This document shows, one piece after another, positions 2,151 through 31,808 of a stretch of 64,000 nucleotides of DNA (the stretch's first letter is position 1; the number at the start of each line of letters is the position of its first letter). This DNA is from Ekhidna sp. (GTDB taxonomy: Bacteria; Bacteroidota; Bacteroidia; Cytophagales; Cyclobacteriaceae). Position numbers and translations under genes: made by a program. Below the pieces are notes generated by a model that was not told where the DNA came from, made no database searches, and was given only the letters and a program-made list of their open reading frames with translations. The stretch is taken from the NCBI RefSeq assembly GCF_040223195.1, contig NZ_JAVKDX010000010.1, positions 73,982-137,981 on the forward strand, read 5' to 3'.

Positions 2151-3869
2151 ATGAAAAAATTTCTCCTGCTGACCTTTGTATCAGTAATAATCATCCGATG
2201 CAACCCTAACGAAGAACAAATACAGCCCGATGAACCGAGGGAGAATCCGGGCCACTCCTATGGTAAGGTGAGGATAGATGATGACCCTACCCTTAAAAAC
2301 CTCATGAGTGCCCTTCAGTCCTCTTCCGGTAGAGTGGCAGCCCTGGACCTGGATAGTGCGGAATATCTACATGACGAAGTATTGGACCTGACCAATTATT
2401 CCATTCTTACTTCCGGTAACCGACTGGACCGTATTGAGAACATTGTATTTGTAGACTTTGATTCTGTATACGCCGCATACAATATCATATATGAGCCATC
2501 CCAGTATCATCTGGCCAATTTGGACACGGCAAGTTTTTTGGCCTATTTCTCAGGAACAATTTCTTACCAATCTTTGGAAACAGGCGAAATCTTTTATGCC
2601 ACAGAAATGCAGGATGGGGTATCCATTGATGGGGAAGCGCATGAGGGAGGACGAACCGACGGTGATGGCGATTTTCAGTACGGATGCTACATTGACCAGC
2701 AGGAAACCATGAGTTCCGAATGCTTTATACAGGTGAACACCTATGAAGTAGGTGGCCGGGTAAAATACACAACAATAAAAGTGGAAAAAACCGGCAAAAA
2801 TGCCGGCCAAACACAAACAAGTACCCACTGGGTGCGCTCCGATACCAAAGAGACGATTACTGACATTACCATCACCTGCCACCTGGACACTGACTTTTCC
2901 GAATGCCACTACAATTGGTTCAATACCAATGGATACCAGGTGATCCCGCAGTTTTCCGGCAACAACTTTTCCGGGGTGCTCAGCCTGGTGCCCAGCGGCG
3001 GACCCCAGCTTAGCCTGCTTGATGCCATAGAGAAGCAATTTTACGACTTATTAGAGCAAGATCCCTTTGCCCTTATTCAAAATTGTGACCAGATCGAAAA
3101 CTGGCAAGCCTTAGCCCAACATACACCCCCACAAGAGGTAATAGATAAAATTCAGAATTTAGATGACAACTATACAAGTATAATTTCTGGAGATTGGGAT
3201 ATACAGTACATCAAAGATGCCAAAGGCCCAGTAGTGAACCTGGACTATTTTCCTGTTAAGATCACCCAGCTTCCGATCAATCCTAACACCGGAAATCGGT
3301 TTGGGCCAACTGGTTTTTTTAACTATGTGAGAAAAAACCTAAACACCTTCTTTGCTAATAACTCTACTGAATTTGGCCCTTACAATGATGATGAATTGCT
3401 GAACTGGCTGTCCGATGACTATTTAGGCACAATTATGAGGTTTGATATCGACCTTCCAGGTCCATTTCAGCAAGATGGGAGCGTCATATGTTCTGATCAG
3501 AAAAATAGGAGTTGGATATTTACTACAATTGAATCACCACAAGATTGGAATCATCCTGTGAGTGGAAACAGACAATTTGGATTAGAACAAAATCAAGATG
3601 GAAGCTATACTTTCTTCACAAGAGGTGTTGATAGAGTAGCGGAAACGTTTGACAATTTTGTTGGAGACTTGCCAATTGCCCCATCAGCTTTTGAAGGAGC
3701 GGATGCTCTCTGGAGTGCGTTTCAGGATAATCTGGAAAATTACATCAATGACCCAGCAAATGGAGGGCAAGCACAAAAGGAAAATCCGCAAATTGATCGC
3801 CCTGATTGGGATAAGGTAAATGAAGTATTAATGGGTACCAGGCCGATTTCTGACTTAGGATGTAATTAA
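2151..3869 (+). CDS. Lipoprotein of unknown function whose last ~160 aa form a C-terminal module that recurs downstream
   Basis: The 572-aa ORF has a lipoprotein signal MKKFLLLTFVSVIIIRC followed by NPNEEQ. I recognise no named domain. The C-terminal region WIFTTIESPQDWNHPVSGNRQFGLEQNQDGSYTFFTRGVDR...NGGQAQKENPQIDRPDWDKVNEVLMGTRPISDLGCN* is paralogous to 4584..5063 and to three tail fragments. Confidence 0.8.
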   Translation: MKKFLLLTFVSVIIIRCNPNEEQIQPDEPRENPGHSYGKVRIDDDPTLKNLMSALQSSSGRVAALDLDSAEYLHDEVLDLTNYSILTSGNRLDRIENIVFVDFDSVYAAYNIIYEPSQYHLANLDTASFLAYFSGTISYQSLETGEIFYATEMQDGVSIDGEAHEGGRTDGDGDFQYGCYIDQQETMSSECFIQVNTYEVGGRVKYTTIKVEKTGKNAGQTQTSTHWVRSDTKETITDITITCHLDTDFSECHYNWFNTNGYQVIPQFSGNNFSGVLSLVPSGGPQLSLLDAIEKQFYDLLEQDPFALIQNCDQIENWQALAQHTPPQEVIDKIQNLDDNYTSIISGDWDIQYIKDAKGPVVNLDYFPVKITQLPINPNTGNRFGPTGFFNYVRKNLNTFFANNSTEFGPYNDDELLNWLSDDYLGTIMRFDIDLPGPFQQDGSVICSDQKNRSWIFTTIESPQDWNHPVSGNRQFGLEQNQDGSYTFFTRGVDRVAETFDNFVGDLPIAPSAFEGADALWSAFQDNLENYINDPANGGQAQKENPQIDRPDWDKVNEVLMGTRPISDLGCN

Positions 3870-3876
3870 TATAAAT

Positions 3877-4281
3877 ATGAAAAAATTTATTTTCAAATCT
3901 ATAATACTAGGGCTGCTCTTATATACAATTCATATGGGTTCAATATTGATTTGTGATCACTTTTATGGACAACCGTCCGGTTATGTTTTTTCTGGCTTTG
4001 GTGTTTTTGTGTACGGTTTAATATTTGGGCTATGGGCATATGTTCTACTCAATGGCATATATATATATATATCAAGAAATGATGTTAAGAGGAGCGCTAG
4101 GTATTTAAAAGCCGTTATCATTCTTATGCTAGGATATTTCCTTTCAAGAATACCCGATATGATTGATAGTGATTTCTTTAGCAACTTTAGTTGGAGAGAA
4201 ATTATTGGATTCTTACTATTGATTCCCGCTTTGGTCGAAATTGAGTTCTTACTAAGGAAAAAATTGAATAAGAGTACTTAA
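3877..4281 (+). CDS. Small multi-pass membrane protein (about 4 TM), a candidate cognate partner or immunity protein of the upstream lipoprotein
   Basis: The 134-aa ORF starts 7 nt after the lipoprotein stop and has four hydrophobic segments. It shows no similarity to the other two small membrane proteins in the array. Confidence 0.7.
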   Translation: MKKFIFKSIILGLLLYTIHMGSILICDHFYGQPSGYVFSGFGVFVYGLIFGLWAYVLLNGIYIYISRNDVKRSARYLKAVIILMLGYFLSRIPDMIDSDFFSNFSWREIIGFLLLIPALVEIEFLLRKKLNKST

Positions 4282-4304
4282 AGGTCTATTCAACGATCTT
4301 TCAA

Positions 4305-4460
4305 ATGGAGGTCAACCCTCTAGATCAGAAAATCAAAAACAATGGTGGGTCGTCAGTTGTCCCCAAAGCCTCAGATAATATAATTTATCGACCAGATTGG
4401 GAAAAGGTGAAGGAAGTGTTAAATGGTAATCGTCCAATTAGCGATTTAGAATGTGACTAA
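4305..4460 (+). pseudogene. Displaced C-terminal tail fragment of the lipoprotein family (51-codon remnant ORF)
   Basis: It translates to MEVNPLDQKIKNNGGSSVVPKASDNIIYRPDWEKVKEVLNGNRPISDLECD*, which matches the NGG...RPDW...RPISDL.C.* tail of 2151..3869. A further partial NGGQPSRSENQ remnant is readable in another frame at about 4285-4335. The fragment has no signal peptide or N-terminal domain. Confidence 0.5.
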
Positions 4461-4556
4461 ACACACAATCATGAATACCTTAGCAAAAGTACTCCGTTAC
4501 ATCCTTATTGTCGATGGTTCAATTTTCCTAATATCATTGGTGGCTTCATTAATGAT
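4411..4556 (+). repeat. Direct repeat copy A (146 nt), covering tail end, 10-nt spacer and the first 86 nt of the membrane-protein gene
   Basis: Hand alignment with 5396..5541 shows 144 of 146 identical positions. The mismatches are G/A at 4418/5403 and G/A at 4455/5440. Confidence 0.9.
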
Positions 4557-4584
4557 GCTTACTTTGAGCCATATCCTGATCTGA
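4471..4584 (+). pseudogene. Truncated 5' copy of the membrane-protein gene at 5456..5893
   Basis: The first 86 nt (MNTLAKVLRYILIVDGSIFLISLVASLM) are identical to 5456..5541. Identity ends at 4556/4557 and the frame stops at TGA 4582-4584, which overlaps the ATG of the next ORF. Confidence 0.6.
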
Positions 4585-5063
4585 TGCCCGAAGAAGGTCT
4601 GTTTTGGAGCGGTAATGAATTAGGAACCATAATACATATCGATCTATCCCCTCATGATGGAACAGTGATAGTTACAGAAGCAGAAAATAATCGCTGGATA
4701 TTTAGTGTTATAAGATCACCTCTTGATTTACATCATCCGGTAAGTGGTAACAGGGAGTTTGGATTTACACAAAACAGTGATGGATCTTATACCTTCTATA
4801 CGATGGGTGTTGATCGGCTTACTCAACCAATAGCCAGTTTGGTTCGAGATTTAAGATATTTAATTGATGGTCAAGATATGATGAATCGAGCAGACGATCT
4901 TTGGATGTCATTTCAGGACAAAATAAAGGAATTTGTTGAGCAAAATGGTGGATCCGCTACCCTACCATCTCAAAGGAATCAAGGAGACAGGCCTAACTGG
5001 CATGAAGCGCAACAGTTCTTAAATGGTGAAATTACTTTAGAAGAATTAAGAAATGATTGTTAA
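4584..5063 (+). CDS. Orphan C-terminal module, a paralogue of residues ~415-572 of the 2151..3869 lipoprotein without signal peptide or N-terminal region
   Basis: The core WIFSVIRSPLDLHHPVSGNREFGFTQNSDGSYTFYTMGVDR aligns with WIFTTIESPQDWNHPVSGNRQFGLEQNQDGSYTFFTRGVDR at 29 of 41 identical positions by hand count. It ends in NGGSATLPSQRNQGDRPNWHEAQQFLNGEITLEELRNDC*. It may be silent or a pseudogene rather than expressed. Confidence 0.55.
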   Translation: MPEEGLFWSGNELGTIIHIDLSPHDGTVIVTEAENNRWIFSVIRSPLDLHHPVSGNREFGFTQNSDGSYTFYTMGVDRLTQPIASLVRDLRYLIDGQDMMNRADDLWMSFQDKIKEFVEQNGGSATLPSQRNQGDRPNWHEAQQFLNGEITLEELRNDC

Positions 5064-5313
5064 AGCATTTGAATTCTTTTTGCTAATAGCATTTATTGTA
5101 TGGAGTGTACTTCTTTTCTATTACTGGGACAGAATACTTTATCCAGCAGACTACTTTAGCTACTATTTAGTTTTAACCATAGTATTTTTAGCATATAAGT
5201 CTTTTATGATTATTCAGTTCTTTGCAAATAAAAAAAAACCCAAATTATATCATTTTTTTGGATTGATTGGTTTTGTTATTTCAACAATTCTTTTCATAAT
5301 TTATCCTATCTGA
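5053..5313 (+). CDS. Small multi-pass membrane protein (about 3 TM), a candidate cognate partner of the orphan module
   Basis: The 86-aa ORF has an ATG that overlaps the last 11 nt of 4584..5063. It contains three hydrophobic segments and is unrelated to the other two small membrane proteins. Confidence 0.6.
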   Translation: MIVKAFEFFLLIAFIVWSVLLFYYWDRILYPADYFSYYLVLTIVFLAYKSFMIIQFFANKKKPKLYHFFGLIGFVISTILFIIYPI

Positions 5314-5349
5314 ATAAACCAATTTGGAATTAATAAAATATCATTCATA

Positions 5350-5445
5350 CCATCCCAAAGAAATCAAGGCGACAGACCTAACTGGGAAAAAGTAAAGGAA
5401 GTATTAAATGGTAATCGTCCAATTAGCGATTTAGAATGTAACTAA
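5350..5445 (+). pseudogene. Displaced C-terminal tail fragment of the lipoprotein family
   Basis: It reads ...IPSQRNQGDRPNWEKVKEVLNGNRPISDLECN*. The PSQRNQGDRPNW stretch is shared with the orphan module, and the remainder is nearly identical to the 4305..4460 tail. No upstream domain is present. Confidence 0.55.
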
Positions 5446-5541
5446 ACACACAATCATGAATACCTTAGCAAAAGTACTCCGTTACATCCTTATTGTCGAT
5501 GGTTCAATTTTCCTAATATCATTGGTGGCTTCATTAATGAT
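5396..5541 (+). repeat. Direct repeat copy B (146 nt)
   Basis: See 4411..4556. The two copies are 985 nt apart in the same orientation. Confidence 0.9.
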
Positions 5542-5893
5542 ATCTGATCGCATTATCAGTATGAATTTTGCATATATTAACTTGATAAGCATGATCGTCT
5601 TTCCAATATCTTTATTTGCTTATATTCTAATTAAAGATATCCTAAGGAATAGCACTCAATGGACAAAATTGATCTTTTACATAGGCATCAGCATCGCTTT
5701 TTTGGCTCTGCTTTTTGTGAAATATAAAAATTATTTGAATGGCTATATTGTAGTAATTCCTGGAATTGCTGCAATTCTAGCTCTCATTGTTACAACAATT
5801 TCTGATTTCAAATCAAAAAAAAGGTTAGCTTATGCATGGAGCTACCTATCCCTTATTCTTTTAATCACGTATCTAATTGCCAACTATTTCTAA
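5456..5893 (+). CDS. Small multi-pass membrane protein (about 4-5 TM), an orphan partner with only a tail fragment upstream
   Basis: The 145-aa ORF starts 10 nt after the tail fragment stop and is strongly hydrophobic. Its 5' end is duplicated at 4471. Confidence 0.7.
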   Translation: MNTLAKVLRYILIVDGSIFLISLVASLMISDRIISMNFAYINLISMIVFPISLFAYILIKDILRNSTQWTKLIFYIGISIAFLALLFVKYKNYLNGYIVVIPGIAAILALIVTTISDFKSKKRLAYAWSYLSLILLITYLIANYF

Positions 5894-6046
5894 TCAAAAG
5901 GAATAACATCTTAATTGATCAGAAAATGCTATTCAATGTGCCAAAGATATCTCATGAAATATCTATTCCTCCCTTTATCCCTTTTTTAACCTTCCCCTTC
6001 AGTACCCATTTAGCAAAAAATTATAGAATATAAGGCCATAGTGCAT

Positions 6047-6139
6047 CAGGAAAATCCGCAAATTGATCGCCCTGATTGGGATGAGGTGAAAGAAGTCCTT
6101 CTAGGACTGAGACCAATTTCTGATTTAGGATGCAATTAA
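6047..6139 (+). pseudogene. Displaced C-terminal tail fragment closest to the tail of the intact lipoprotein
   Basis: It reads QENPQIDRPDWDEVKEVLLGLRPISDLGCN*. Positions 6048-6082 are identical over 35 nt to 3778-3812, and the rest is similar with scattered substitutions. Its stop lies 38 nt from the convergent uvrD stop. Confidence 0.6.
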
Positions 6140-6177
6140 AAAATATAATGAAGTTTATTCTAAAATTTGAAAGTATC

Positions 6178-8445
6178 CTAGCCAAGAATCCTCAACTTGG
6201 CAAAGCTCAGCAGCAGCGTTTTCTCTCCGGCTTGTTCAAAATCCACTTTGGCTTTTTTATTGGCACCTTGCTCATCTATCTCCGTCACCACGCCAAAGCC
6301 AAATTTCGGGTGTTCCACCTTCATGCCTTCGGCCAGGTTGCTGGTATCGCTCGGCTCAAAATCAGCACTTGGGGTATGGTTCACCTTCGCAGCAAAGCGT
6401 TTGTTGGTGTTTTCCTTCCGGATATTCGAAACGAAGTTTTTGGTAACATAATTCACCCCGGGCGAGACCGGATCACTTGAAGAAAACTTCCGGTTTACCT
6501 TGATGAATTGCGGGTCTACTTCCTCCAGGAACCTGCTGGGCTCACAGTTTTTGAGTCGGCCAAATCGATATCGGTTTAGCGCATAGCTCATATAAAGTTT
6601 CTTCTCCGCACGTGTGATCGCCACATAGAAAAGCCTGCGCTCTTCTTCCAAATCGGCGCGGCTACTCAGCATCATCTGAGAAGGGAAAAGTTCCTCTTCC
6701 AGACCTACGATGAAAACGTACGGAAACTCCAACCCCTTCGCCATGTGAATGGTCATGAGGGTTACGGCATCTTCATTTTTTTGATTTCGATCCTCGTCTG
6801 TCAGAAGTGCTACATCCTGCAGGAACGCTCCAAGGCTTTTATCTTCCCGCTCCGGATCATCGGTAAATTCTTTGATCGCATTCAGGAGCTCCTGCGTATT
6901 CTCATAGCGGTTCATGCCTTCGATGGTCTTGTCCTCATAGAGCTCCTTCAGCAAGCCAGAAGTCTTGGCTATTTGAGAGGCTGTTTCGTAGGCATCCTTC
7001 TTCTCGTTGGTCAGCCGGAAAGACTTGATCAGGGCGGCAAAATTTTCTACCTGAGTGCCTCCACGGTTTCCTACGTAGGAAGAAGCTTTTTCCATGATTT
7101 CCCAAAGTTCCTTCCCTTCTTCATGGGCAGAGACTACCATCTTATCAATCGTTGTTGGCCCGATCCCTCGCTTGGGTAGGTTGATGATCCGACGCATGGC
7201 TGCTTCATCGTTTGGATTGACCGTGTAGCGGAAATAGGCGAGGAGGTCTTTGATTTCCTTGCGTTGGTAGAATGAAACACCACCCACAATCCGGTACCGG
7301 ATGTTGTTTCGTCGCAGCGCTTCTTCAATGGCCCTGGATTGACTATTGGTGCGGTACAGTACAGCAAACTCTTTCTCTGAAGCATGGCTTTGCATCTTCG
7401 TCTCAAAGATGGCGGAGGCCACCAGCTTTCCTTCCTCATTGTCTGAAGTGGCTTTGATGAGCTCAATGAGATCACCATCATCATTGGCCGTCCAGACGTT
7501 CTTTTTTAGCTGGGCAGTGTTCCTCCCGATCACTGCATTGGCAGCATTTACGATTGTCTTGGTGGATCGGTAATTCTGCTCAAGCCGGATGGTTTTTAGG
7601 TCAGGATAGTCTCTCTCAAAATTTAGAATGTTTTGGATATCGGCTCCCCGGAAAGCATAGATACTTTGCGCATCGTCACCCACCACACAGATGTTTTGTC
7701 GGACGGCAGCCAGTCTTTTGGCTATCAGGTACTGCGAGATATTCGTGTCCTGAAACTCATCGATCATTACGTAATGAAAACGCTGCTGGTATTTGTTAAG
7801 CACATCATCATGTTGCTGGAAAAGGATGTTCGTATTGAACAGGAGGTCATCGAAATCCATTGCATCGGCAGCAAAGCATCGCTCACAATACGTCTTATAA
7901 ATACGCCCCATTTCCGGTCGCATATTCTGCGTATCGTCTTCCAGGTAGATGGGGTTGTTCAGGTACTCCCTCCATGACACGAGTCTGTTTTTCGCTCCAG
8001 AGATTCGGCTGTAGATGATGTTAGGTTTGTAGACTTTGTCATCCAGGTTGAATTCTTTGACGATCAGCTTGATAAGGGATTTGGAGTCATCCGTGTCATA
8101 TATGGTGAAGTTGCTGGGATACCCGATTCGGCTAGCTTCTGCTCGTAAGATTCGAGCAAACACCGAGTGGAATGTCCCCATCCACAGGTTTCTGGCTTCA
8201 GCCCCCACCATTTGCTCAATTCGCTTTTGCATTTCCCTGGCTGCTTTGTTGGTAAATGTCAGTGCCATGATGTTGAACGGATCTACATCATGGGCGCGAA
8301 TGAGGTGGGCTATCCGATAGGTGAGTACCCTTGTTTTGCCTGATCCGGCACCTGCTATGATCATGCAAGGTCCTTCTACATTTACTACACCTTCTCGTTG
8401 GGGGGGATTGAGTTGATCAAGGTAATCTGCCTGCGCTTCTGCCAT
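6178..8445 (-). CDS. uvrD: UvrD/PcrA-family ATP-dependent DNA helicase
   Basis: The 755-aa ORF carries AGAGSGKT (Walker A), IDEFQDTN, VGDDAQSIYAFRGA and TIHMAKGLEF. It also has the C-terminal VEHPKFGFGVV motif. Confidence 0.95.
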   Translation of the reverse strand: MAEAQADYLDQLNPPQREGVVNVEGPCMIIAGAGSGKTRVLTYRIAHLIRAHDVDPFNIMALTFTNKAAREMQKRIEQMVGAEARNLWMGTFHSVFARILRAEASRIGYPSNFTIYDTDDSKSLIKLIVKEFNLDDKVYKPNIIYSRISGAKNRLVSWREYLNNPIYLEDDTQNMRPEMGRIYKTYCERCFAADAMDFDDLLFNTNILFQQHDDVLNKYQQRFHYVMIDEFQDTNISQYLIAKRLAAVRQNICVVGDDAQSIYAFRGADIQNILNFERDYPDLKTIRLEQNYRSTKTIVNAANAVIGRNTAQLKKNVWTANDDGDLIELIKATSDNEEGKLVASAIFETKMQSHASEKEFAVLYRTNSQSRAIEEALRRNNIRYRIVGGVSFYQRKEIKDLLAYFRYTVNPNDEAAMRRIINLPKRGIGPTTIDKMVVSAHEEGKELWEIMEKASSYVGNRGGTQVENFAALIKSFRLTNEKKDAYETASQIAKTSGLLKELYEDKTIEGMNRYENTQELLNAIKEFTDDPEREDKSLGAFLQDVALLTDEDRNQKNEDAVTLMTIHMAKGLEFPYVFIVGLEEELFPSQMMLSSRADLEEERRLFYVAITRAEKKLYMSYALNRYRFGRLKNCEPSRFLEEVDPQFIKVNRKFSSSDPVSPGVNYVTKNFVSNIRKENTNKRFAAKVNHTPSADFEPSDTSNLAEGMKVEHPKFGFGVVTEIDEQGANKKAKVDFEQAGEKTLLLSFAKLRILG

Positions 8446-9234: not shown

Positions 9235-9716
9235 CGCTTAAAACCCCCCTCGTGAAAGGTTTGATCACACGTTTCATCTTTCATAGAGCATACCTGATAC
9301 CTGTACTCATCCTCAGATAGAAATATCCAACTGTCCCTGAGTAGCATGTCACCATAGGCATATTCATAATAGATGTTTTTTCCTTCGATTTTGATTATTC
9401 CCTTACTCACACCCCCTAGCTTATCAAACTCATAGAATTCAAGTTGCTTTGTTTCCGAATTAAAAGCTCTAACACCCTCATTTCTCAATCCAAACTCTAG
9501 AGTCTTAGGATCTGTGGTGTAGGTTTTCACTTTCACAATCTTCCTTTCCAGTCCCCATTCGAATTCCTTCACGGTTTTGCCGTCATGACCTCCGAGTTGT
9601 TTTCCATCAGCAATCCAGGTGCTCCCGACTAGATTCTCGAAGGCCTTTATTGATTCATTTTGTGCCTGAGTAAACTGTGAGGCAATGAGAAGGGAAATCA
9701 GCAGCAGGTTTTTCAT
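9225..9716 (-). CDS. Secreted hypothetical protein
   Basis: I trimmed this to the internal ATG at 9716, which gives a signal peptide MKNLLLISLLIASQFTQAQ. The longer listed ORF would overlap the upstream peptidase gene. Confidence 0.65.
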   Translation of the reverse strand: MKNLLLISLLIASQFTQAQNESIKAFENLVGSTWIADGKQLGGHDGKTVKEFEWGLERKIVKVKTYTTDPKTLEFGLRNEGVRAFNSETKQLEFYEFDKLGGVSKGIIKIEGKNIYYEYAYGDMLLRDSWIFLSEDEYRYQVCSMKDETCDQTFHEGGFKRKK

Positions 9717-13794: not shown

Positions 13795-13840
13795 TTACAT
13801 TTGACCAGCACAAATTAAATTTTTAACTCTTTACTTGCAG

Positions 13841-13872
13841 CCCCTTGGTTTATTCACTGAGGGGTTTTTTAT
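13841..13872 (+). terminator. Intrinsic terminator
   Basis: A CCCCT...AGGGG stem is followed by TTTTTTATTTT. Confidence 0.5.
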
Positions 13873-14103
13873 TTTGACCACAAAATCCCAAAAATAAAAG
13901 AGCCAAATTTCAAACTTCAATGTCTGATAGGTTTAGCATTGAGTAAAAATGATTTCTTCCTTAGAGTTAAAATTTGATGAAGCAATTGAATTGAAAGGAT
14001 ATTATCTGCCATAATCAATAAATCAAGTTAAGGTCAGGTCTATGTATAATGATTTTGGAGTTTGTTTGTGATTTATTATTTGAAATTTGGAGGTTTATAA
14101 CAT

Positions 14104-31747: not shown

Positions 31748-31783
31748 TTAAAACAAAAACCCCTCACCGTTTCCGGCAAGGGG
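31748..31783 (-). terminator. Intrinsic terminator after accC
   Basis: The minus strand reads CCCCTTGCCGGAAACGGTGAGGGG followed by TTTTTGTTTT. Confidence 0.5.
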
Positions 31784-31808
31784 TTTCAATCTTTACAAGA
31801 TTTCCTAA

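Follow-up and report, generated by a model that had tools for sequence, protein, structure and literature searches.

Rhs/CdiA orphan C-terminal (CT)/immunity modules, and 'C-terminal displacement', were reportedly described by Poole et al. in 2011. Rhs/CdiA orphan modules are also attributed to Koskiniemi et al. 2014, as that work is cited in PMC5361080. For the effector-immunity arrays of the Vibrio cholerae type VI secretion system (T6SS), a model has been proposed in which effectors undergo sequential displacement by homology-facilitated illegitimate recombination and leave 3' effector remnants behind (Kirchberger et al. 2017, PMC5361080). SitA belongs to the lipoprotein polymorphic toxins of myxobacteria (PMC5562445). 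Here we analysed a 64-kb stretch from a metagenome-assembled genome (MAG) of Ekhidna sp. (hereafter the window, meaning the whole stretch of DNA). The subject is a direct repeat of 167 nt, with copy A at 4390-4556 and copy B at 5375-5541 on the + strand. Both copies sit in an AT-rich island that follows the gene for a lipoprotein-like protein of 572 aa (the main gene). As recombination scars go, the repeat is ordinary and of a known kind; the Bacteroidota gene family in which it lies is uncharacterised. It is probably the boundary shared by two recombined cassette arrays, in a locus that behaves like a polymorphic toxin-immunity array. The repeat, the character of its two edges, the cognate pairings and the recurrence of such arrays in other genomes are demonstrated here; we infer the toxin/immunity function as well as the order and topology of the events.

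The extent of the repeat was determined by repeat searches and pairwise alignment. The two copies are 95.8% identical at a spacing of 985, with 818 nt between them. Direct repeats of 40 nt or more form only two families in the whole window, and this pair is one of them. A base-by-base count placed the mismatches at 4394, 4395, 4397, 4406, 4409, 4418 and 4455, and the longest exact run is 101 nt (4456-4556). The first-pass annotation had compared 4411-4556 with 5396-5541 and found 2 differences in 146 positions, with weaker similarity for about 20 nt further upstream. Our count gave the same 2 of 146, and the mismatch positions between 4394 and 4409 agree with the weaker stretch. The abrupt loss of identity that it had placed at 4556/4557 was seen again in the pairwise alignment, which collapses directly past 4556/5541. 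A chance or low-complexity origin of the repeat was ruled out by the repeat searches.

In each copy, about 70 nt from the 3' end of a family gene are followed by a spacer of 10 nt and then by the opening 86 nt of a membrane-protein gene. This content had been described before, and it was borne out when the tail stop codons (4458-4460 in copy A, 5443-5445 in copy B), the spacer (ACACACAATC in both copies) and the ATG codons of the membrane-protein gene (4471 and 5456) were located. In copy A, the tail is that of T2 (4287-4460, +), a frameshifted remnant of about 57 codons from the 3' end of a family gene of the imm3-cognate type, which ends in KASDNIIYRPDWEKVKEVLNGNRPISDLECD and a stop codon. 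The 86 nt that follow belong to imm3' (4471-4556, +), a truncated 5' fragment of 28 codons plus 2 nt whose frame continues to a stop at 4582-4584. In copy B, the tail is that of T3 (5345-5445, +), a chimeric tail remnant, and the membrane-protein gene is imm3 itself (5456-5893, +), which is intact and encodes 145 aa with roughly five transmembrane (TM) segments by hydropathy.

Between the copies lie the orphan C-terminal module (4557-5063, +; 168 codons, with the subfamily tail GEITLEELRNDC) and its 3-TM partner (5053-5313, +), an 86-aa protein with three hydrophobic segments by hydropathy whose start overlaps the last codons of the module. The orphan module has no N-terminus or signal peptide of its own. 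It is 41% identical to aa 408-569 of the main protein (BLASTP E 3e-34), in agreement with the earlier statement that a truncated gene copy is fused here to an orphan C-terminal module, and its closest relatives are P0075 and P0076 (61-64% identical). T2 and the orphan module share a reading frame in which the single stop at 4458-4460 separates them (4437-4640). The TGA of the imm3' frame overlaps an ATG (TGATG, 4582-4586) that opens a 159-aa open reading frame (ORF) annotated in the deposited MAG (P0074). Translational coupling at this TGATG is conceivable, and the product would have no signal peptide.

The differences between the copies are informative in two respects. First, those at 4406, 4409 and 4418 are synonymous third-position changes and the one at 4455 turns the final residue from D to N. 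This synonymous bias (3 of the 4 coding differences) would fit alleles that diverged while functional, and weakly favours them over decay after an in-situ duplication. The near-identity had been taken as the mark of a recent event; that is plausible but not demonstrable, and the synonymous-biased differences fit diverged functional alleles. We discarded a plain, recent tandem duplication of the entire 985-bp unit, the sequence upstream of 4390 being no copy of 4557-5374 by alignment. Second, the differences bear on whether the contig is correct. A contig could have been threaded through a repeat common to two strains or loci, so that the copies would not be adjacent on the real chromosome; the source is a MAG, and the 101-nt exact run exceeds many assembler k-mers. 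However, 7 positions, 4418 and 4455 among them, distinguish the copies, and the variants of copy A tie T2 to the junction of imm3' and the orphan module within about 170 nt, which is in the range of a read pair. The junction at 4556/4557 would have to occur in reads, and the gene order is biologically coherent and is paralleled in isolate genomes. The two internal differences (4418, 4455) would argue against a simple assembly duplication, and we regard an artefact of assembly as very improbable.

The two edges of the repeat are of different kinds. At the right edge, the frame of the orphan module read back through 4556 gives FINDAYFEPY, and the relatives P0075 and P0076 have FTNDDAYFQPY. The corresponding site in L008 (the contig of P0076) is TTCACTAATGATGACGCATAC, that is, TTCACTAATGAT followed by GAC GCATAC. 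In the window, TTCATTAATGAT (4545-4556, +) is followed by GCTTAC, and in intact imm3 the same TTCATTAATGAT (5530-5541) is followed by ATCTGA. The last 12 nt of the repeat (imm3 nt 75-86) match the L008 site at 11 of 12 positions and the similarity is absent further upstream; the chance of a fixed 12-mer matching at 11 or more positions is about 2e-6. From this comparison, we take the right edge to be a microhomology-mediated illegitimate join of about 12 nt.

At the left edge, 6 of the 7 mismatches fall within the first 29 nt. Up to about 5386, T3 resembles the pre-tail of the orphan module (PSQRNQGDRPNW). It is T2-like from there on, its 3' part being near-identical to T2, and the switch falls on the conserved RP(D/N)W codons. 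The left edge thus reads as a graded homologous (homeologous) exchange point. The orphan pre-tail (LPSQRNQGDRPNW) at 4963-5027 recurs past the 3-TM gene at 5348-5412, with 77% identity over 65 nt and 89% over the first 38 nt (4963-5000 in the orphan module). This places a short direct repeat on either side of the 3-TM gene as well, and makes T3 a chimera. What precedes the left copy is the native upstream context of the imm3 cassette: T2 matches the 3' end of the family gene that stands before the imm3 homologue in Reichenbachiella faecimaris. The right copy retains the native downstream context, with intact imm3.

We propose the following mechanism. The locus would belong to a Bacteroidota lipoprotein family with a conserved Bet v 1/START-like C-terminus, in which a small polytopic membrane protein of its own accompanies each subtype. 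The entry of new pairs would trim the older genes to 3' remnants and leave their partner genes downstream. In the case of the window, two parental arrays may have recombined, one consisting of the main gene, immA, T2 and imm3 and the other of toxC, the 3-TM partner, T3 and imm3, each with an imm3 cassette. An illegitimate join at the microhomology of about 12 nt would have linked imm3 nt 75-86 to the FTNDD codons of toxC, and one homologous exchange would have taken place within or upstream of the conserved tail/imm3 segment. The expected product is a truncated piece of imm3 joined to a toxC that lacks its N-terminal part (the orphan module), followed by the 3-TM partner and an intact imm3, and the 167-nt repeat would be the portion common to both arrays. 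The topology may have been (a) homology-facilitated illegitimate recombination, in which DNA carrying main gene-immA-T2-imm3 is anchored upstream, ends in imm3 and joins the microhomology of the resident toxC. This would displace the 5' 400 codons of toxC and spare the 3-TM partner and imm3, in a single event with a clear selective rationale. Alternatively, it may have been (b) a deletion between the two microhomology sites, with the two arrays in tandem.

At least four topologies (displacement, deletion, circle integration, and tandem duplication with replacement) yield an identical product. We ranked (a) and (b) first and the circle second because (a) and (b) need the fewest steps and match the family-wide pattern. 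The circle is how the first-pass annotation had explained the locus. A 985-bp circle of the orphan module, the 3-TM partner, T3 and the first 86 nt of imm3 would have integrated into a resident T2-imm3 by one crossover (Campbell type). Such a circle could stem from microhomology-mediated excision or from a circularised fragment of the toxC array, and the 12-nt microhomology, as direct repeats 985 bp apart in the presumed donor, could generate it. The product is exactly as predicted, an insert between direct repeats, with the native upstream context at the left copy and the native downstream context of the imm3 cassette at the right copy, and slight differences between the copies are expected of donor and recipient alleles. 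As in Campbell-type integration, the direct repeats that bound the insert would be the shared homology, and recombination between them would reverse the event; a RecA-dependent loss of the 985-bp unit through the repeats is plausible. However, the circle takes two steps (illegitimate circularisation and integration) against a single displacement or deletion event, and linear-DNA or deletion pathways give the same product. In or next to the island, the ORF list and a tRNA scan revealed no integrase, transposase, att-like site or tRNA. In contrast to a Campbell-type insert, the insert has no replicon, replication function, integrase or att site; it encodes only a truncated module and the 86-aa membrane protein, so that a circle would hold truncated gene fragments only. 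Neither a circle nor an empty site was found in public genome or metagenome contigs. Similar arrays elsewhere, in other family loci and in V. cholerae, are explained without circles (PMC5361080). What stands of the single-crossover claim is the repeat-flanked insert with the native contexts split between the copies; the circle as its cause is one of at least four topologies, with no integrase, att site or tRNA and no circle or insert-free allele to its credit, and we consider it unlikely.

The displacement arrays of V. cholerae resemble the arrangement that we propose. In both, an intact upstream effector-like gene is followed by older, retained partner genes, and the displaced 3' ends stand before orphan partners. 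A homologous anchor and an illegitimate join, with no dedicated recombinase, were also proposed there (PMC5361080). Unlike the V. cholerae arrays, the window locus is linked to no T6SS or known delivery system, and its proteins are lipoprotein-like putative toxins with a predicted START-like domain. In addition, the conserved extreme 3' tail of this family is itself a recurrent crossover site, and both parents of the window array would have carried the imm3 cassette, giving a long near-identical direct repeat.

We next consider the main gene and its family. The main gene lies at 2151-3869 (+) in the ORF list and its product ends in RPDWDKVNEVLMGTRPISDLGCN. An Ekhidna sp. MAG encodes a hypothetical protein, P0001, that is 100% identical to it. 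The homologues number 72, come from Cytophagia, Flavobacteriia and Sphingobacteriia and mostly match the C-terminal half; all of them lack a Pfam domain. A scan of species-representative Bacteroidota genomes gave 223 stretches that encode family relatives. The N-terminal halves of the homologues diverge and the C-terminal half (about aa 290-572) is conserved, P0003 showing 71% identity to the main protein over aa 292-572. All modules share a single conserved domain (41-71% identity) in which positions H, P, V, R, G, D, R, W and G do not vary; the invariant core is HPV..R..G...DR and the conserved motif HPVSGNRxFG...GVDR. A nearly invariant Cys stands near the domain start (C29) and another at the end (penultimate), and the C-terminus of every homologue reads RPDWxKVxxVLxGxxPISDLGC plus 0-2 residues. 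The tail was tried as a dedicated recombination signal and this was rejected: it is the conserved C-terminal helix and Cys of the domain, which every homologue has. In most homologues the N-terminus is a hydrophobic segment and then a Cys, in the manner of a lipoprotein signal, and reads L(S/N/A/G)C at this point. The signal region of the main protein (2151-2210) ends in VIIIRC, with Arg at -1, an atypical lipobox.

A Bet v 1/START-like fold is predicted for the conserved C-terminal half. The AlphaFold2 model of this half had a predicted local distance difference test (pLDDT) score of 88.5 and a predicted template-modelling (pTM) score of 0.85, and the best Foldseek matches to it were helix-grip proteins of the Bet v 1/PR-10/START type (E ~2e-5, probability 1.0, target-normalised TM-score ~0.6). 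The PDB matches at E<=1e-3 numbered 82; the top 50 were almost all of the Bet v 1/PR-10/START type, with PYL receptors and CoxG also present, and START was the best match in a viral structure library too. The likeness to Bet v 1/PR-10/START (SRPBCC) proteins is this predicted helix-grip fold of the C-terminal half. The family differs from them in having only 8-14% sequence identity and no Pfam match, extra N-terminal helices, the HPVSGNRxFG...GVDR motif, the Cys pair and the lipoprotein N-terminal half. Neither the family nor the insert between the repeat copies matched anything in Pfam or NCBIfam (both at E<=0.1) or in PADLOC, and a family-profile search of PDB sequences gave no meaningful match.

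The membrane partners go with the type of tail. The partner of the main gene is immA (3877-4281, +), a 134-aa multi-pass membrane protein by hydropathy and by its homologous partners. Its homologues of 132-134 aa (28-41% identical) stand directly after the family gene in L001, L003 and L004, loci whose chromosomal contexts are unrelated, and the family loci as such occupy unrelated genomic contexts. The 3-TM protein has a homologue in L001 (38% identical), directly behind a remnant ending in GEITLNELRNDC, which is the tail type of the orphan module, and in L008 the last codons of the family gene likewise overlap a small membrane ORF. The only homologue of imm3, P0073 (66% identical), comes from the isolate R. 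faecimaris, where it immediately follows a complete family gene of 576 aa, and the tail of that gene, KSSDNVIYRPDWEKVRDVLLGKKQISELGCN, is matched by the T2 tail. Three cognate pairs can thus be listed, each in at least two genomes: the main-type tail with the 134-aa immA family, the GEITLxELRNDC tail with the 86-87-aa 3-TM protein, and the SDN(I/V)IYRPDWEKV tail with the 145-aa imm3. Judged by synteny, the three tail/module subtypes each travel with their own, mutually unrelated membrane-protein family, and we presume that the small polytopic membrane partners are putative immunity or partner proteins.

Remnant arrays were then surveyed by tblastn in 80 genome loci. In 11 of them, extra family fragments were found downstream on the same strand, ended at the C-terminus and were truncated at varied points in the 5' part. 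In the window, T2, the orphan module, T3 and T4 all reach the family C-terminus, and each precedes a small membrane gene, whole or fragmentary. Four tail remnants are present in L001, an orphan module with its partner lies 2 kb downstream in L006, and L084 has a 96% tail copy and a 90% orphan fragment. The tail-repeat identity elsewhere is 96% in L014, 93% in L052, 94% in L066 and 96% in L084. The recurrence of remnants, orphan modules, small membrane genes and tail repeats of high identity in unrelated genomes points to general cassette-displacement dynamics, of the sort known in toxin-immunity arrays, and not to a one-off plasmid-like insertion. The largest partner-gene array seen is in L066 (6800-9800, Chishuiella changwenlii), where at least six small membrane genes of two alternating types follow the main gene, each preceded by a 68-80-nt copy of the tail end and gene start (84-94%).

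Tandem units of tail and partner are also known, in L005 and in L012 (a duplication of 758 nt, 83%), and they lend some support to another origin of the repeat. Tandem duplication and allelic replacement are both common processes. The 985-bp unit could have been duplicated by unequal sister-strand exchange at the 12-nt microhomology in toxC-3TM-T3-imm3, and the two microhomology sites lie exactly as far apart as the repeat copies are spaced (985). An allelic replacement would have followed, in which DNA carrying main-immA-T2-imm3 swaps the left part, with its right crossover in the first tail-imm3 copy. However, the transient duplication must coincide with a transfer event, the first copy of the unit leaves no trace upstream of 4390, and the synonymous-biased differences must stem from the donor allele. 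We regard this two-step origin as distinctly improbable.

Mobile elements were noticed in some of the related loci. In L007 (6313-8615; also L081), from a Balneola MAG, an IS1595-type transposase gene splits the family gene, and L007 carries a 241-nt, 97% direct repeat (5736-5976 / 9329-9569). In-array ORFs of L006 (7441-7955, Mucilaginibacter) and L040 (7422-7999, Flavobacterium) contain the motifs HIHILW and HIHLIV, which we take to be IS200/RAYT-like. In L040, a 172-nt, 97% repeat takes in the 3' end of the ORF with the RAYT-like motif. The insertion sequence (IS)- and RAYT-like genes of L007, L006 and L040 have no counterpart in the window island.

Several points weigh against recombination between two cassette arrays as the origin of the repeat, and against the toxin/immunity role. 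The parental arrays are hypothetical, and the microhomology was compared with a relative that is about 61-63% identical in protein, not with the parental sequence. As the window comes from a MAG, long-range linkage across the repeat rests on the assembler. No sister strain, circle or insert-free allele was recovered: an exact 33-mer and an exact 24-mer of the repeat core were unmatched in genome and metagenome contigs. Exact-protein look-ups with the main gene and imm3 likewise gave no other contig, and a metagenome protein-pattern scan for close relatives of the orphan module gave one distant locus only. The toxin/immunity role is putative, with no sequence match in Pfam, NCBIfam, PADLOC or the PDB. 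To our knowledge, the START-like fold is not a known toxin fold. The fold of the C-terminus is also constant, unlike that of classical polymorphic toxins.

Polymorphic toxins were taken sensu Zhang et al. 2012 (PMC3482391). In place of unrelated C-terminal folds, the variation in this family is allelic or at the level of subfamilies and the N-terminal half is the more variable one; a specific downstream partner co-varies with the type, as judged by synteny. In common with displacement arrays, 3' remnants stand before retained partners, and the illegitimate joint falls on a microhomology of 11/12 nt. By our analysis, the family works like the displacement arrays and is not a proven member of the polymorphic toxins. 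As in the Rhs/CdiA systems, a full-length gene is followed by C-terminal modules that lack an N-terminal part and have their cognate genes downstream, and the repeats between main and orphan copies permit recombination that deletes or activates cassettes. However, in Rhs and contact-dependent inhibition (CDI) systems the homology is 5' of an unrelated toxin domain, whereas the modules here share one fold (41-71%) and the homology extends to the very 3' end. In addition, rather than at a conserved pre-toxin motif, the orphan module of the window starts at an illegitimate junction that lies within the domain. With SitA, the family may share lipoprotein-anchored polymorphic proteins with a specific downstream partner gene, and a delivery analogy is possible (PMC5562445).

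The remaining features of the island and the window are as follows. The GC content of the island is 29-39%, against 46-49% in the flanks. At the distal end of the array, T4 and an immA-like start (6046-6177, +) consist of a tail remnant of about 31 codons, QENPQIDRPDWDEVKEVLLGLRPISDLGCN with its stop, and the first ~9 codons of the membrane gene. This region abuts the stop of a large minus-strand gene at 6178, presumably a UvrD/PcrA-type helicase, and the immA-like fragment ends exactly there (stop 6178-6180). The locus is thus flanked by a T9SS-substrate gene (28-1530) on one side and by this helicase-like gene (6178-8445) on the other. An outer direct repeat (3778-3898 / 6048-6166, 79-81%) takes in the main-gene tail, the spacer and about 20 nt of immA and brackets the whole downstream array; we take it to be older than the 167-nt repeat. 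The NCBI tags RLN88_04375 (main gene) and RLN88_04380 (orphan ORF) are consecutive, so immA is apparently unannotated in the deposited genome, although related contigs have its homologous ORFs annotated. Immediately before the island, at 1566-1981, three short overlapping ORFs in different frames carry an NPMYIG-type motif; to us they look like a small membrane methyltransferase-like gene with frameshifts. The window has a single inverted repeat of 40 nt or more (13835-13874 / 31750-31789); it is 70% complementary, and its arms resemble terminators with a GC-rich hairpin and a T-run. Scans for promoters and terminators yielded no more hits than shuffled sequence did, and such scans are uninformative for Bacteroidota.

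The repeat itself is of modest interest, as a clean, datable case in which a microhomology join and a homologous edge occur together, and it shows how arrays grow while keeping older partner genes. The gene family is the more interesting lead, given its lack of annotation, the confident START-like prediction, the strictly linked membrane partners and the orphan arrays. We suggest tentatively, and with some doubt of our own, that the locus may be part of a widespread undescribed antagonism system of Bacteroidota, in which toxic surface lipoproteins with a START/Bet v 1-like (lipid-binding) domain are neutralised by subtype-specific immunity proteins of the polytopic membrane type, the 3' tail (RPDW...C) serves as a homology arm, and the repeat is a fresh trace of its use. 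If this is true, the 3' tail would let cassettes of module, immunity gene and tail remnant be captured ahead of resident immunity genes. The features of the family are genomic hallmarks of interbacterial toxin-immunity systems, and they make it a candidate, open to test, for a new antagonism system that targets membranes or lipids.

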